A DNA stretch of 64,000 nt from Escherichia coli (GTDB lineage: Bacteria; Pseudomonadota; Gammaproteobacteria; Enterobacterales; Enterobacteriaceae): NCBI RefSeq assembly GCF_036507355.1, contig NZ_AP027877.1, one strand, 5' to 3'. Position 1 is the first letter of the stretch, and every line of letters begins with the position of its first letter. This document shows, piece after piece, positions 6,220 through 45,365 of the stretch. The position numbers were made by a program, and so were the translations under genes. A model generated the notes under the pieces. That model did not search any database and was not told the origin of the DNA. It worked only from the letters and a program-made list of their open reading frames with translations.

Positions 6220-6372
6220 ATGCTAACAAAATATGCCCTTGTGGCAATCATAGTACTGTGTTGTACAGTACTGGGATTCACGCTCATGGTAGGCGACTCG
6301 TTATGTGAGTTGAATATCAGAGAGCGTGGTATGGAGTTTAAGGCAGTTCTCGCTTACGAATCGAAGAAGTAG
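6220..6372 (+). CDS. Hok/Gef-family type I toxin (small membrane peptide)
   Basis: 50-aa product [50 protein letters not shown], closely resembling chromosomal Hok peptides (HokE-like as I recall it); SD gcagggagg upstream; leader begins with the hok-type motif ggtgcttgaggctgtctggc. Confidence 0.8.
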
Positions 6373-6737
6373 CCACCACGTGGGGGTAAAACCCCGCGTA
6401 TTGAATTGTGATGGTTTGGTCTCCTGCACCCTTTTTTAAATTTATATTTTTTATGTGAATATATTGTCTCTATTTATTATTATGAATTTCAAATGAAAAT
6501 CATAAATTTATTCACAATATAAATGTTTTATTGGCTGATATATATCACAGATAATTTTTAAAATATGCGTAAATATCCTTTAAGTTTACTGAAGGATAAA
6601 AATATTGTGACTTTCTTTGATTTCTGGGGAAAAACCCGACGCGACGAGAAAGAAGGGGGTGACGACTATCACCTTCTTTGCTGGCATTCGCTGGATGTGG
6701 CCGCGATGGGCTATTTAATGGTTAAAAGAAATTGCTT

Positions 6738-6746
6738 CGGGCTGGC
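6738..6746. repeat. IS1 target-site duplication, left copy (CGGGCTGGC)
   Basis: Identical 9-mer immediately flanks both IS1 ends. Confidence 0.85.
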
Positions 6747-6761
6747 GGTAATGACTCCAAC

Positions 6762-7265
6762 TTATTGATAGTGTTTTATGTTCAGATAATGCCCGATGAC
6801 TTTGTCATGCAGCTCCACCGATTTTGAGAACGACAGCGACTTCCGTCCCAGCCGTGCCAGGTGCTGCCTCAGATTCAGGTTATGCCGCTCAATTCGCTGC
6901 GTATATCGCTTGCTGATTACGTGCAGCTTTCCCTTCAGGCGGGATTCATACAGCGGCCAGCCATCCGTCATCCATATCACCACGTCAAAGGGTGACAGCA
7001 GGCTCATAAGACGCCCCAGCGTCGCCATCGTGCGTTCACCGAATACGTGCGCAACAACCGTCTTCCGGAGCCTGTCATACGCGTAAAACAGCCAGCGCTG
7101 GCGCGATTTAGCCCCGACATAGCCCCACTGTTCGTCCATTTCCGCGCAGACGATGACGTCACTGCCCGGCTGTATGCGCGAGGTTACCGACTGCGGCCTG
7201 AGTTTTTTAAGTGACGTAAAATCGTGTTGAGGCCAACGCCCATAATGCGGGCTGTTGCCCGGCAT
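6762..7265 (-). CDS. insB: IS1 transposase InsB (InsAB' C-terminal part)
   Basis: 167-aa [30 protein letters not shown] ... NIKHYQ. Confidence 0.9.
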
Positions 7266-7459
7266 CCAACGCCATTCATGGCCATATCAATGATTTTCTG
7301 GTGCGTACCGGGTTGAGAAGCGGTGTAAGTGAACTGCAGTTGCCATGTTTTACGGCAGTGAGAGCAGAGATAGCGCTGATGTCCGGCGGTGCTTTTGCCG
7401 TTACGCACCACCCCGTCAGTAGCTGAACAGGAGGGACAGCTGATAGAAACAGAAGCCAC
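7184..7459 (-). CDS. insA: IS1 InsA (transposition repressor / InsAB' N-terminal part)
   Basis: 91-aa [43 protein letters not shown]. Confidence 0.9.
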
Positions 7460-7514
7460 TGGAGCACCTCAAAAACACCATCATACACTAAATCAGTAAG
7501 TTGGCAGCATCACC

Positions 7515-7523
7515 CGGGCTGGC
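7515..7523. repeat. IS1 target-site duplication, right copy (CGGGCTGGC)
   Basis: Identical to 6738..6746. Confidence 0.85.
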
Positions 7524-9451
7524 TGATTATTTTCGTCAATTAGGGATTTCTGACAAGGAACAGGCGGCTCAATTTTTCGCCTGGTTGTTGTGCTGGCACG
7601 ATATTGGAAAATTTGCCCGCTCATTTCAGCAACTTTACCTGCACCCACAACTCAAGGTTCCGGAAGGCGCAAGAAAGAATTACGAAAAGATCTCTCATTC
7701 AACGCTGGGCTACTGGTTGTGGCATCATTATTTAAGTGAATGCGAAGAATTGCTTCCTGCCTCTTCACTCTCTACTCGCAAACTTAAACGTGTAATAGCG
7801 ATGTGGATGCCCATGACTACCGGGCATCATGGTCGGCCCCCTGACCGTATTGATGAACTGGATAATTTTCTGCCTGAAGACAAAGTTGCCGCGCGAGATT
7901 TTCTCCTTGAAATCAAGGCACTGTGTCCGCTCATAGAGATTCCCACATTCTGGGATAATGACGAGGGAGTTGAACTTTTAAAACAACTTTCCTGGTATAT
8001 CTCTGCAACAGTCGTACTTGCAGACTGGACGGGTTCGTCAACGCGATTTTTTCCACGCGTCGCACACCCAATGGATATTAAAGATTACTGGCAGAAAACT
8101 TTAGTTCAGGCTCAAAACGCCTTAACCGTCTTTCCTCCAAAAGCAGAAACCGCACCTTTCACCGGAATTAATACGCTGTTTCCTTTTATTGAGCACCCGA
8201 CACCATTACAGCAAAAGGTGCTGGATCTGGATATCAGCCAGCCAGGGCCACAGTTATTTATTCTGGAAGACGTGACTGGCGCAGGTAAAACAGAAGCGGC
8301 GCTTATCCTGGCGCACAGGTTGATGGCTGCGAGGAAAGCACAGGGTTTGTTTTTTGGCCTGCCAACAATGGCAACGGCCAATGCCATGTACGATCGGCTG
8401 GTCAAAACCTGGCTTGCTTTCTATTCGCCAGAGTCCCGCCCCAGCCTGGTGCTGGCACACAGTGCCCGCACATTAATGGACCGCTTTAATGAATCACTCT
8501 GGTCCGGTGATTTAGTCGGGTCAGAAGAACCGGATGAACAAGCGTTCAGTCAAGGATGTGCAGCCTGGTTTGCCGACAGTAACAAGAAGGCTTTACTGGC
8601 TGAAATTGGCGTCGGCACGCTGGATCAGGCGATGATGGCGGTGATGCCGTTCAAACATAATAATCTGCGGCTTCTGGGGCTGAGTAACAAAATCCTGCTG
8701 GCTGATGAGATCCACGCCTGTGACGCTTACATGTCATGCATTCTTGAAGGGCTGATCGAGCGGCAGGCGCGTGGTGGAAACAGCGTCATTTTGCTTTCTG
8801 CTACGTTATCCCAACAGCAGCGCGACAAACTCGTCGCCGCCTTTGCGCGTGGCACAGAGGGCCAGCAAGAAGCTCCGTTCCTTGAAAAGGATGATTACCC
8901 CTGGCTGACGCATGTCACGAAATCCGATGTGAACTCACACCGGGTAGCGACGCGCAAAGACGTTGAGCGTAGCGTCAGCGTGGGTTGGCTTCATAGTGAA
9001 CAAGAGAGTATTGCGCGTATCGAATCGGCGGTAAGTCAGGGAAAATGCATCGCCTGGATCCGCAATTCTGTCGATGACGCTATTAAGGTTCATCGTCAGC
9101 TGCTTGCCCGCGGCGTCATTCCCGCTTCCAGCCTTTCACTCTTTCATAGCCGCTTTGCTTTTAGCGATCGCCAGCGAATCGAAACGGAAACGCTGGCACG
9201 CTTTGGTAAAAATTGTAATTTAAAAAGATCATCGCAAGTCATTGTTTGTACACAAGTAATTGAGCAAAGTGTGGATATTGACCTGGACGAAATGATCTCC
9301 GACCTTGCCCCCATTGATTTGCTGATCCAGCGAGCGGGGCGATTACAGCGACATATCCGCGATATTAATGGTCAGTTAAAGCGTGACGGAAAAGACGAGC
9401 GTTCCCCTCCTGAATTGCTGATTCTGGCCCCCGTCTGGGACGACGCTCCTG

Positions 9452-9781
9452 GTGACGAATGGTTCGGCAGTGCCATGCGTACGCGCCTTTACAGAGGCCG
9501 CGCTTAAAGTCTCACCAACCGGAAAACAAAACAGCTTTGCCAGCCGTGCCTACGCCTCCTGGGCGCTGGCGGAAAAAGGCACTGTTCAACCGCGTTCTCT
9601 GGCGGCGGCTTTCTATGAACCCATTAATGGTACCCGTCAGTTAGATGTGGCGGTGCAGCGTATTACAACGCTTCGCGAAAACATGAATACGGTCTACGAA
9701 CAGAAGACTGAATGCGCAAGTTTTGACGTGATGAACAAACAGGGAAGCATGAAGGACGTACTGGACTTTATCTGCGCGTAA
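9452..9781 (+). other. cas gene remnant: either the 3' end of a Cascade gene (likely cas7e/casC) or a frameshifted Cas3 C-terminal segment
   Basis: 109-codon ORF in the +1 frame relative to cas3, overlapping its end by 55 nt; its stop lies 10 nt before the casD-like start with an intervening SD (aagggg), an operon-internal spacing. Confidence 0.35.
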
Positions 9782-9791
9782 GGGGCGGCTT

Positions 9792-9870
9792 ATGAGCCAA
9801 TATCTGATTTTTCAGCTTCATGGGCCAATGGCATCCTGGGGCGTCGATGCCCCCGGCGAAGTGCGTCATA
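9792..9870 (+). pseudogene. casD: casD (cas5e) 5' remnant, about 25 codons, fused out of frame to cas1
   Basis: N-terminus MSQYLIFQLHGPMASWG matches the Cas5e N-terminus as I remember it from E. coli (MRSYLILRLAGPMQAWG); similarity is lost where the Cas1 frame begins. Confidence 0.6.
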
Positions 9871-10973
<1,103 letters not shown>

Positions 10974-11069
10974 GTTATGTGTTCTTTAAAAATAAGGAAA
11001 TGTTTGAATTTAGTTGGTAGATTGTTGATGTGGAATAAATTTGTTTAAAAACAGATATGTATGCTTAGT
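10974..11069 (+). promoter_or_regulatory. CRISPR leader (AT-rich)
   Basis: About 95 bp of AT-rich sequence between the cas2 stop and the first repeat. Confidence 0.7.
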
Positions 11070-11281
11070 GTGTTCCCGGCGCCAGCGGGGATAAACCGAC
11101 GAGGGGCTCGTTATTCGGGAAATTACAAAAGTGTTCCCCGCGCCAGCGGGGATAAACCGGCCCAGGGATTTGTTCAATCCAGCGTGCCGCTGTGTTCCCC
11201 GCATCAGCGGGGATAAACCGGGCGCACTGGATGCGATGATGGATATCACTTAGAATTCCCCGCCCCTGCGGTAGAACTCCC
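11070..11281 (+). CRISPR. type I-E CRISPR array: 3 spacers of 32 nt, three 29-bp repeats and a degenerate terminal repeat
   Basis: Repeats GTGTTCCCGGCGCCAGCGGGGATAAACCG (11070..11098), GTGTTCCCCGCGCCAGCGGGGATAAACCG (11131..11159), GTGTTCCCCGCATCAGCGGGGATAAACCG (11192..11220), degenerate gaattccccgcccctgcggtagaactccc (11253..11281); spacers at 11099..11130, 11160..11191, 11221..11252. Confidence 0.9.
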
Positions 11282-11301: not shown

Positions 11302-12339
11302 TCAAGACGCCTTCGCCAACTCTTTCACCAGAGGTAGCATTATCCGCATAACGTCACGGCAGCGACGTTCTATTCTTCCAGGAAGTGCCTTATCAATATG
11401 CTGTTGATTATCCAGTCTTACGTCATGCCAGCTATTTCCCGCAGGGAATGCGGCTGTTTTTGCGCGTTGCTGATAACCATCCTTATTCCCAAGATTCCAG
11501 TTAGTCGCTTCCACCGAAAGTACAGCAATGCCCGCTTTGTCGAATATTTCTGCGTCATTACAACACCCAGTGCCTTTCGGATAATTTTTATTCAAACCCG
11601 GATTGGTCGTTGCGGCAATTCCATGACTACGCGCAATTGCCAGCGCCCTGTCGCGCGTTAATTTCCTTACTGCTTCAGGTGTTTTTACGCCACTGTTGAA
11701 ATACAGCTTATCGCCAACGATCAGATTATCGAGATTAATCACCAATAAAGTATTTTTCTTTTCGGTATCACTCATGCGCTTGAGGAAATTCTCAGCGCCT
11801 AATTTCCCTTCTTCTTCGCCACTGGTTGCTACAAAACGAATGCCATATTCGGTTGGCGTATTTTTCAGGCGTTCTGCCAGCTCCAGCATGACACCTAAAC
11901 CTGCGGCATTATCATCCATTCCTTGTAACGTCAGCCCGCCGAGATTGGCATCTGCATCTGCGTCGCTCTGCGGGGCATAGGTATCCAGATGCGCCATAAT
12001 AATGATCTGCTGCGGCGCTTTGCCTTCATGAGCGGCAATCACCGTACTTCCCGTCACGTTGTGCCAGTTTTTGCGGTTATCGCGGGCGGTATAAATATAT
12101 CGGCTATTAAACGTACGAATATCACTGCGGTAACCCATTTGCTGAAACTGTTGCCGAATATAATCGGCAGATAACATTTCTGCAGGAGTTCCGGTCATGC
12201 GTCCCGGAAAGAAAGTGGCAATATGTCGCGCCTGTGTATTGGCAAAATCGCCAGGTTTAGGTGACGAGGCGTGTACGGGGAGAATAAAGCATACGCCGAG
12301 CGCCAGGGCAGCGGTACGGTGGCGCAATGCGGAAAACAT
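11302..12339 (-). CDS. iap: alkaline phosphatase isozyme conversion aminopeptidase
   Basis: 345-aa ORF with signal peptide and M28-type aminopeptidase region; adjacent to the CRISPR array as in E. coli. Confidence 0.9.
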   Translation of the reverse strand: MFSALRHRTAALALGVCFILPVHASSPKPGDFANTQARHIATFFPGRMTGTPAEMLSADYIRQQFQQMGYRSDIRTFNSRYIYTARDNRKNWHNVTGSTVIAAHEGKAPQQIIIMAHLDTYAPQSDADADANLGGLTLQGMDDNAAGLGVMLELAERLKNTPTEYGIRFVATSGEEEGKLGAENFLKRMSDTEKKNTLLVINLDNLIVGDKLYFNSGVKTPEAVRKLTRDRALAIARSHGIAATTNPGLNKNYPKGTGCCNDAEIFDKAGIAVLSVEATNWNLGNKDGYQQRAKTAAFPAGNSWHDVRLDNQQHIDKALPGRIERRCRDVMRIMLPLVKELAKAS

Positions 12340-43652: not shown

Positions 43653-43676
43653 TTCTTCATCAGGGAATTCAGGGAA

Positions 43677-44450
43677 TTGAACATCAGAACAGGGATGTGC
43701 GCTTTTTTATTGAGCTTAGTGCAGTCTGCACAGGCCACCAGCTTTACCGAATATCTGCCAATGAGTGGCAGCGAATATGCGCAAAAGCGGGCGCTGAAAC
43801 CTCTCCTGACCATGCCTTATTATACCGAGCAAACTTGGCATTTTAGAAAAATCGGCGTTGCTGGCGTGACGCTTGAGAAGATGCCAAATGAAGAGGATTA
43901 CTGGCAATTAACCGCTAAAGACCGCGCGGGTAAATCCTGGACGGTGCCAGTGGGGTTGCTGGCAAATATGGCGGGCAAAGGGCAGCTCTATCGCGCCGAT
44001 CTGGATCGTAACGGCATTCAGGATCTGGTTATCTGGTTGCCAAGTGCCGGTAATGGTCTGGCGCCCTATGCACATTTAATCCTCATGACGTTCACGCACG
44101 AAGGCCGTCCCTGTGTCTTTGAACCCTGGGGATTCTACACTGCAAGCAAAACTGGCGTAGATGATTTGCTGGATTTACAAGGCAATGGTCACACGCAATT
44201 GCTGGATATGCAGTTTAATTCTGGTTACTGGATAACCAGTCTGTATCAGGTAAAAGACGCCAAATGGCAGCGTGTTCACGGCTGGTTTGGCAAGTTAAGC
44301 TATCCCGCGCTCACGCGTTTTACTTATACCCCCAACCGTAAACTCGTCCTCAAACCCATCGCCGGGCGCGACACACAAACGGAAGATCTGTCGCTGACGC
44401 AGCGTTGCTTGATAAAGGGGGATATGCTTGATGGGGTGAATCAGAACTGA
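43677..44450 (+). CDS. secreted protein of unknown function with two FG-GAP-like D-x-D-x-N-G-x-x-D loops
   Basis: 257-aa ORF starting 24 nt after the hycI stop; N-terminal signal peptide (CAFLLSLVQSAQA|TS); motifs ADLDRNGIQDLVIW and DLLDLQGNGHTQLLD. Confidence 0.6.
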   Translation: MNIRTGMCAFLLSLVQSAQATSFTEYLPMSGSEYAQKRALKPLLTMPYYTEQTWHFRKIGVAGVTLEKMPNEEDYWQLTAKDRAGKSWTVPVGLLANMAGKGQLYRADLDRNGIQDLVIWLPSAGNGLAPYAHLILMTFTHEGRPCVFEPWGFYTASKTGVDDLLDLQGNGHTQLLDMQFNSGYWITSLYQVKDAKWQRVHGWFGKLSYPALTRFTYTPNRKLVLKPIAGRDTQTEDLSLTQRCLIKGDMLDGVNQN

Positions 44451-44611
44451 CTTTTTGCAGAGTGGTTATGAGGATTTTGGGGGTAATTATATCACGCGCA
44501 AGTGTTTACATATTGTGAACTTGGATTTGATGAGCTATAGTTTCCGAACACATGAGGATAGAACTCGCAGATGTGGCTGTTTACTTACTATAAGGAAGTT
44601 AAAACTTAAAA

Positions 44612-44923
44612 ATGCACATCATTTCTAAAGCGCCATTTGAAGAGTCTGCGCGTAAATATCCTAACGACGCTCTGGCTCTTCAGGCATTGTATCGGGTTAT
44701 TAAGGAAACGGATTTTTCTACGCCAGAAGAAATGCGAACGGCTTTTCCCAACCTCGACAATTTTAAATATCGCAACAAATGGTACGTTCTGGATGTCGGC
44801 GGGAACAATCTTAGGGTTATTGCCTACATAAACTTTGTTAATAAGCGGTTCTTTGTGAAGCACATAACGAATCACGCAGAGTATGACAAACTGACACGTT
44901 ACTACAGAGAGAACAAAGAATGA
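44612..44923 (+). CDS. HigB-like type II toxin (RelE/ParE superfamily)
   Basis: 103-aa ORF MHIISKAPFEESARKYPND ... FPNLDNFKYRNKWYVLDVGGNNLRVIAYINF, collinear with E. coli HigB as recalled; toxin gene precedes and overlaps the antitoxin gene (ATGA), the inverted order typical of higBA. Confidence 0.75.
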   Translation: MHIISKAPFEESARKYPNDALALQALYRVIKETDFSTPEEMRTAFPNLDNFKYRNKWYVLDVGGNNLRVIAYINFVNKRFFVKHITNHAEYDKLTRYYRENKE

Positions 44924-45339
44924 CTGCTAATGCTGCACGCGCTGTTAAAGCAACAAGAGAACTGGTCAATGCAGTCCCCTTTCTGGGAGGCAGTGACTCA
45001 GAAGATGATTATCGTGAAGCACTGGAACTGGTCGAATATTTGATTGAAGAAGATGACACCAATCCACTTATCGACTTTCTGGCGAGCCGCATTGCAGAGT
45101 ATGAAAACAACAACGAAAAGTTTGCAGAGTTCGACAAAGCCGTTGCGGCAATGCCGGTTGGCGTGGCGTTACTTCGCACGTTGATTGATCAACATAATCT
45201 GACCTATGCGGATTTGAAGAACGAAATCGGCTCTAAATCCCTGGTCAGTCAGATTTTGTCTGGACAACGATCCCTGACAATATCCCACATTAAGGCACTT
45301 TCAGCCCGATTTGGCGTTAAGCCGGAATGGTTTCTTTGA
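44920..45339 (+). CDS. HigA-like antitoxin (C-terminal XRE-type HTH)
   Basis: 139-aa ORF with C-terminal HTH region GSKSLVSQILSGQRSLTISHIKALSARFGV. Confidence 0.75.
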   Translation: MTANAARAVKATRELVNAVPFLGGSDSEDDYREALELVEYLIEEDDTNPLIDFLASRIAEYENNNEKFAEFDKAVAAMPVGVALLRTLIDQHNLTYADLKNEIGSKSLVSQILSGQRSLTISHIKALSARFGVKPEWFL

Positions 45340-45365
45340 TTTTGACTGATGCCAAACTCCAGATT

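Follow-up and report, generated by a model that had tools for sequence, protein, structure and literature searches.

Touchon & Rocha 2010 (PMC2886076) reported that partial deletions and insertion sequences (IS) often affect cas loci, that arrays hold few repeats where only cas relics are left, and that the spacers at the trailer end are the most conserved. Almost without exception such arrays end in a degenerate repeat, and E. coli normally has one type I-E locus (PMC2886076). Almendros et al. 2014 (PMC3903273) described the locus treated here with its hok/sok element, the variants of its 96-nt leader and an anchor formed by a degenerate repeat and a spacer, and distinguished 'minor arrangements' that resulted from IS elements and further deletions. 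Where the K-12-type cas variant was absent, the hok/sok element belonged to the locus as a standard part (PMC3903273). One variant of the 96-nt leader is tied to E1-type cas genes; the definition of the leader followed here is that of PMC3903273.

The window, i.e., the whole 64-kb stretch of DNA that was analysed, had the gene order cysJ, cysI, cysH, hok, cas remnants, cas2, array, iap (- strand), cysDNC. The flanking 23.5 kb matched every E. coli genome, the best complete RefSeq genome at only 99.1%, and by this measure the lineage is poorly represented among complete E. coli genomes. The hok gene (6220-6372, + strand), located between cysH and cas3, encoded a 50-aa type I toxin of the Hok/Gef family one residue off the O157:H7 copy. 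Elsewhere in the window, an islet of 1.7 kb between hycI and ascB (43674-45345) was absent from D8, the closest complete genome, but occurred in 747 other complete genomes of E. coli, whose annotation of the islet lists a HigB-family toxin, an HTH protein and a hypothetical protein.

The A+T-rich leader (96 nt; 10974-11069, + strand) began directly after the stop codon of cas2, and the array plus its terminal repeat occupied 11070-11281 with a repeat period of 61 nt (61, 61). All array elements are given on the + strand. The leader-proximal Repeat 1 (29 nt, GTGTTCCCgGCGCCAGCGGGGATAAACCG; 11070-11098) read CCCGGCG, with C9G in the hairpin stem, and was followed by Spacer 1 (32 nt; 11099-11130), a one-base variant (position 9, C for A) of a spacer that is old and internal in related arrays. 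Repeat 2 (29 nt; 11131-11159) had the consensus sequence, and Spacer 2 (32 nt; 11160-11191) was common to O157:H7 and O55:H7 arrays. Repeat 3 (29 nt, ...CCCCGCatCAG...; 11192-11220) read GCATCAG, with an inherited GC>AT change in the tetraloop, and Spacer 3 (32 nt; 11221-11252) was the trailer-end 'anchor' spacer, which is widespread in arrays (PMC3903273). The terminal or 'anchor' repeat (11253-11281) was degenerate (PMC2886076), its best register being at offset 0 relative to the consensus with 18 of 29 positions identical. The conserved gene iap (11302-12339, - strand; NF007568 match, 6.5e-213) bounded the array. The three spacers and the two variant motifs thus stand where the original prediction had them. 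Its span for the array, 10974-11281, was right at the end, which takes in the terminal repeat that its text left unmentioned, but not at the start, as 10974-11069 is leader and not array.

Allowing up to 3 mismatches, the consensus repeat had 3 matches in the window and 0 in 100 dinucleotide-preserving shuffles. The repeats were of the 29-nt 'type 2' kind (G[A/T]GTTCCCCGCGCCAGCGGGGATAAACCG), in 3 copies with 0-2 mismatches and separated by 32-nt spacers; no further copy of the consensus repeat occurred in the 64 kb, which places the second E. coli array (CRISPR-II) outside the window. The array was situated between iap and the cas2 end of a cas-E operon, inside the iap-cysH interval, and the gene order was the same in every compared genome. 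Its leader had 0 mismatches against those of O157:H7, O55:H7, D8, L008 and L009, five strains with E1-type cas genes, and a degenerate terminal repeat with the conserved anchor spacer was present at the iap end in all compared genomes. Judged on these features, the array is an E. coli type I-E CRISPR-I (CRISPR2.1) array between cas2 and iap, of the O157-like 'E1' cas variant. Tandem Repeats Finder did not detect the array, as expected with unique spacers, and an Rfam search returned no match. A crude scan of the leader for a sigma-70 consensus promoter found none, a result of little weight in either direction.

The state of the cas operon was established by aligning the window to the intact locus of O157:H7 F6667 and by tblastn with the eight Cas proteins of that locus. 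The 5' fragment of cas3 (codons 1-61; 6565-6746, + strand) matched residues 1-61 of O157:H7 Cas3 with 96.7% identity, and its N-terminus agreed with the reference. It was interrupted by a complete IS1 of 768 bp (6747-7514, - strand; IS1 family transposase match, 1.8e-42; terminal inverted repeats), with a target duplication of 9 bp, CGGGCTGGC, at 6738-6746 and 7515-7523; this was the sole IS copy in the window. The middle fragment of cas3 (7515-9481, + strand) matched Cas3 residues 59-717 with 94.7% identity. With IS1 removed in silico, the joined cas3 pieces gave 713 open codons, 95% identical to O157 Cas3, with residues 714-899 missing, and the NCBIfam Cas3 profile was covered only at positions 52-665 of 878.

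Two deletions followed downstream. The first, of 3,520 bp (junction 9481/9482), took Cas3 residues 714-899, cse1, cse2 and codons 1-251 of cas7, and left the last 100 codons of cas7 (9482-9781, + strand; Cas7 residues 252-351, 98% identity); the 109-aa Cas7 fragment was an exact match to the E. coli protein BED21181.1. The second, of approximately 1.4 kb (junction at approximately 9876/9877), took the rest of cas5 after its first 28 codons (9792-9875, + strand; recognised in the alignment to O157:H7 and by tblastn), the whole of cas6e and codons 1-39 of cas1. The remainder of cas1 (9877-10683, + strand; Cas1 residues 40-307, 99.3% identity) stayed in an open reading frame from a chance ATG at 9820, within the cas5 fragment and in a different frame, which gives a chimeric Cas1 of 287 aa. 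Only cas2 (10680-10973, + strand) was intact, with 100% amino-acid identity to O157:H7 Cas2e and a TIGR01873 match of 1.8e-39. There was no tblastn match to cse1, cse2 or cas6e anywhere in the window. Compared with O157:H7, cas1 differed at 4 synonymous and 2 non-synonymous codons, and cas2 at 1 and 0. As the remaining frames of cas3, cas1 and cas2 were without stops and had few non-synonymous changes, the damage may be recent. The allele that combines these lesions with the 3-spacer array was rare, being present in only a few public contigs.

The locus had the repeats, spacers, leader, position and trailer end of a CRISPR2.1 array and failed as a functional type I-E system, with an incomplete Cascade set, a cas3 that is not intact and a cas1 that is truncated even though cas2 is intact. 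It is best understood, with a probability of about 0.9, as the vestigial CRISPR-I (CRISPR2.1) array of an O157-like 'E1' type I-E system, contracted and not working as immunity. Following the established type I-E pathway, the array transcript would not be cut into crRNAs without Cas6e, there would be no interference without Cascade and a whole Cas3, and the addition of new spacers would be unlikely with a Cas1 truncated at its N-terminus.

The repeat variants were evaluated by folding. In the predicted fold, repeat positions 5-11 paired with positions 16-22 in a stem of 7 pairs closed by a GCCA tetraloop, and the consensus Repeat 2 reached -15.2 kcal/mol (7-pair stem; z-score -3.2). In Repeat 1, C9G disrupted one stem pair, and the fold fell to -10.9 kcal/mol, a cost of 4.3, with a z-score of -1.2 (vs. 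-3.2). In Repeat 3 the GC>AT change at positions 12-13 was in the tetraloop; all 7 pairs were retained at -14.4 kcal/mol, a cost of 0.8. The predicted fold of the terminal repeat was weak (-6.4 kcal/mol). The stem-loop result, which concerns the repeat as a Cas6e substrate, is a folding prediction. The original statement on the hairpin is accordingly reversed: the Repeat 3 change, being in the loop, barely affects the fold, and it is the Repeat 1 change that breaks a stem pair. A reading from sequence alone calls for caution on this point, as whether a variant is in the stem or in the loop must be checked by folding.

The arrays of related strains were compared, as had been proposed, and this revealed an inherited trailer end, a lost unit and a private change in Repeat 1. 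Spacers 2 and 3 and the GCATCAG form of Repeat 3 were identical in O157:H7 F6667, O55:H7 CB9615 and FDAARGOS_946, and the terminal repeat differed from that of each of the three by one base (trailer plus terminal repeat, 1-2 bases against O157:H7 and O55:H7). In FDAARGOS_946 the same trailer end closed an array of 14 spacers adjoining intact cas genes. Of 5,426 complete E. coli genomes, 328 carried Spacer 2, each at a single place, and the matches listed fit the CRISPR-I site. Spacer 3 was found in 41 JGI metagenome contigs, always in array context. In 39 of these 41 arrays it was followed by a terminal repeat of the same family, in three one-base variants, and the other 2 contigs ended after 7 bases. 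The repeat preceding Spacer 3 in the metagenome arrays (n = 41) read GCGCCAG in 29, GCATCAG in 10 and GCGTCAG in 2. This allelic series before the anchor spacer (GCGCCAG/GCGTCAG/GCATCAG) occurred on both GAGTT- and GTGTT-type repeats, and Spacer 2 was absent from all 41 contigs. Being shared with O157:H7 and O55:H7 and polymorphic across metagenome arrays, the Repeat 3 variant is, on the sequence comparisons, an allele of the anchor end that is old and was inherited.

The relatives used for a finer comparison, L008 and L009 among them, were assemblies encoding an identical Iap protein. Against L008 the leader had 0 differences in 96 nt, and the stretch from Repeat 2 through the trailer 0 in 171; over leader, array and trailer there were 2 differences in 328 compared positions, one in Repeat 1 and one in Spacer 1. 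The background was 0.3% for the neighbouring cas1-cas2 region and 1.3% for the flanks, and the array was not in excess of it. Repeat 1 C9G was private to the lineage: none of the 849 complete genomes that share the leader carried it, and all of them matched at 48 of 49 positions. The two private changes, Repeat 1 C9G and Spacer 1 A9C, were in the same 61-nt unit (11070-11130), each at position 9. This observation was made post hoc, and their co-location may be due to chance or may have arisen as a side effect of the deletions that affected the unit.

These results bear on the explanation first offered, which was that both repeat variants reflect recent decay in place of a short array after selection for immunity had lapsed. 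The destruction of the cas operon would agree with it, as would the private stem change that destabilises the hairpin of Repeat 1 by 4.3 kcal/mol and the private base change in Spacer 1. For Repeat 3, however, the comparisons already refute it: strains that have a whole cas operon and a long array carry the variant base for base, 10 of the 41 metagenome arrays have it too, and, being in the loop, it barely alters the fold. The degeneracy of the terminal repeat is normal for such arrays, and 2 changes in 328 positions, none of them in the leader, do not exceed the 0.3-1.3% background. As an account of both variants, decay in place is thus quite improbable. The original prediction concluded that selection for immunity no longer acts on the locus. 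This is very probably correct because the cas operon is wrecked, but the decaying repeats on which the conclusion was based do not carry it. On the evidence of the alignments, the locus was disabled by structural events and not by slow decay through point mutation.

The targets of the spacers were searched in several collections. No credible protospacer for any of the three spacers was found among GenBank phages and PLSDB plasmids, where the strong hits were only CRISPR arrays. Matches in Klebsiella (query 52-73) were discarded, as they spanned the artificial junction of Spacers 2 and 3 in a concatenated query, and E. coli 'plasmid' matches were CRISPR arrays and not protospacers. The scans of large collections, whose patterns carried N at every sixth position, gave no match to any of the three spacers in IMG/VR, no match to Spacers 1 and 2 in GTDB genomes, and, in JGI metagenomes, no match to Spacer 1 and only the 41 array matches to Spacer 3. 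In 5,426 complete E. coli genomes (sensitive mode), Spacer 1 matched only the array of GF131 and Spacer 2 had, among the matches listed, none outside arrays; none of the spacers had a second match with up to 8 mismatches in the window, and a text search of papers for the sequence of Spacer 3 returned nothing. The spacers, which it had been suggested could show past exposure or self-targeting, gave no information on either, with no protospacer in the phage, plasmid and host collections searched. Such an outcome is common with old spacers of E. coli.

A near-match to Spacer 3 was present in an array on pIOMTU792 (NZ_LC542972.1, 242939-250967), a conjugative IncHI2 plasmid on which a segment of chromosomal type, with cas7-cas5-cas6e-cas1-cas2, the array and iap, was located within a few kb of blaCTX-M-15. 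A type I-E module has apparently moved onto this resistance plasmid.

The functional verdict covers 64 kb of the genome; a second type I-E set elsewhere is improbable, as E. coli normally has one such locus. With such a set the array could still be in use, its transcript being processed by cas genes located elsewhere, and its perfectly conserved leader and the intact cas2 would fit such use, as would the restriction of the sequence to 64 kb. Against this, E. coli type I-E genes are found only beside the CRISPR1 array, and the other E. coli system (I-F) employs a different repeat of 28 nt (PMC2886076). Cas6e, cse1 and cse2 were also missing from the window, and no target was found for any spacer in the collections searched. 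Continued use is therefore very unlikely. Of similarly low probability is that the remnant has been kept for a non-immune role, or that its contraction was selected because it removed harmful spacers. The conserved leader, the intact cas2, the cas1 that is truncated yet still open, and the anchor unit (repeat, Spacer 3, degenerate repeat), which is kept throughout, could reflect a residual role of this kind, and Touchon & Rocha 2010 (PMC2886076) speculated on an unknown function for persistent old spacers.

The vestigial array was once longer. In L008 (14 spacers) and L009 (10 spacers) the trailer end read ...ACGAGGGGaTCGTTATTCGGGAAATTACAAAA - CCGTCGTTCATTCAGTTAACGCACCAGTCGTA - spacer 2 - spacer 3, in the order S1'(A9)-CCGTCGTT...-S2-S3, with S1' internal and fourth from the trailer. 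Spacer 1 of the window was this internal spacer of L008 and L009 with A9C. The unit between Spacer 1 and Spacer 2 in the relatives was absent from the window, which indicates the deletion of at least one repeat-spacer unit of 61 bp. From these alignments the array is a contracted remnant from which whole repeat-spacer units were lost. The direct inference extends only to the one unit that stood between Spacers 1 and 2; the leader-proximal spacers, 6-10 in L008 and L009, may either have been lost or never have been acquired. Identical repeats can recombine or slip against each other, which would remove whole 61-bp units; a degenerate terminal repeat would be unable to join such events, and this would explain the persistence of the last spacer. 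Another relative, L011 (17 spacers), was without Spacer 1 and retained the CCGTCGTT unit, a pattern which indicates that losses at the level of units are common in this group.

The A form of Spacer 1 occurred in one complete genome, GF131, in a sensitive-mode search of the 5,426 complete E. coli genomes. With A in L008, L009 and GF131, parsimony favours an A-to-C change in the lineage of the window. In GF131 (NZ_CP172134.1, 7314-10122) the ancestral form of Spacer 1 preceded a different trailer end, which held two other spacers and had three changes in its last repeat. The presence of the same spacer in two array contexts (GF131 vs. L008 and L009) points to recombination between arrays or to independent acquisition.

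A young short array, in which Spacer 1 was recently acquired at the leader end from a recent encounter, is hardly credible. Spacer 1 is leader-proximal, and its exact sequence was absent from the 5,426 complete E. coli genomes by megablast, but its one-base variant was internal, fourth from the trailer, in relatives with 10 and 14 spacers, and was present in GF131 too. The single mismatch explains why megablast missed the related spacer, and no protospacer was found in the collections searched.

In the long-array relatives the cas7 region was colinear with the reference at the DNA level, and the cas7 call was shortened (216 aa) in L008 (12626-13692) and missing in L009 (12382-13460); frameshifts in cas7 may mean that their operons are also partly disabled. 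D8 had eight cas genes and a 15-spacer array, with cas2 (10448-10742) annotated as frameshifted.

Three assemblies, GCA_905398585.1, GCA_047852605.1 and SRR31122001, were 99.95-100% identical to the window over 10-17 kb and had both cas deletions and an identical array, Repeat 1 C9G and the base in Spacer 1 included. That the repeat variants are sequencing or assembly errors, the case in which the original prediction would have lost its meaning, was rejected as barely conceivable, since the identical array with both variants recurred in these three independent assemblies and the Repeat 3 variant was also present in O157:H7 and O55:H7 genomes and in metagenomes. GCA_905398585.1 and GCA_047852605.1 spanned the cas3 site and had no IS1 there; SRR31122001 stopped short of the site. 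With the deletions and the array shared by all three assemblies and IS1 missing from the two that cover its site, the deletions, the contraction and the point changes are older than the divergence from these assemblies, and the insertion of IS1 is younger.

The locus is thus a clean and datable example of the death of a type I-E system, in which deletions and unit loss came first and IS1 next, and point changes contributed almost nothing. Repeat variants at the trailer end are usually inherited polymorphisms, and the neighbouring cas genes are far more telling about function. A precise marker for typing this rare lineage is available in the private C9G and A9C changes combined with the junctions of both deletions.

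The type of locus is already known, and the window adds one more arrangement derived from IS and deletions. It resembled arrangement A (cas-E1, L1 leader, hok/sok; PMC3903273) in its position between iap and cysH, in hok next to cas3 and in the 96-nt leader, and arrangement A with its minor arrangements in the 29-nt repeats, the anchor repeat and spacer at the iap end and the erosion by IS and deletion. No named sub-arrangement of PMC3903273 was matched to the combination of IS1 at cas3 codon 61, the cas3-cas7 and cas5-cas1 junctions and a 3-spacer array. The CRISPR1 locus of O157:H7 and O55:H7 had an identical leader, Spacers 2-3 and Repeat 3 GCATCAG and a near-identical terminal repeat, and the array of O157:H7 F6667 also had exactly three spacers. 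Unlike the window, O157:H7 and O55:H7 kept all eight cas genes, had other leader-proximal spacers and were without Repeat 1 C9G. GF131 was similar in its truncated cas3, its lack of Cascade genes and its ancestral form of Spacer 1, but its deletion was independent: cas3 ran approximately 27 bp past the junction of the window and was fused to a repeat, without leader, cas1 or cas2, and its array had 11 spacers and a different trailer end. The Shigella, Salmonella and E. coli B/BL21 loci (PMC2886076) showed the same partial cas operons, truncations and IS, and few repeats beside relics. A Shigella origin of the window was weighed and dropped, given its single IS in 64 kb and the record of the exact Cas7 fragment in an E. 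coli chromosome. The window differed from Shigella in having a single IS in 64 kb, as opposed to an IS-laden genome, and from BL21, in which all cas genes were lost and a long array was kept, in retaining fragments of five cas genes beside a short array.
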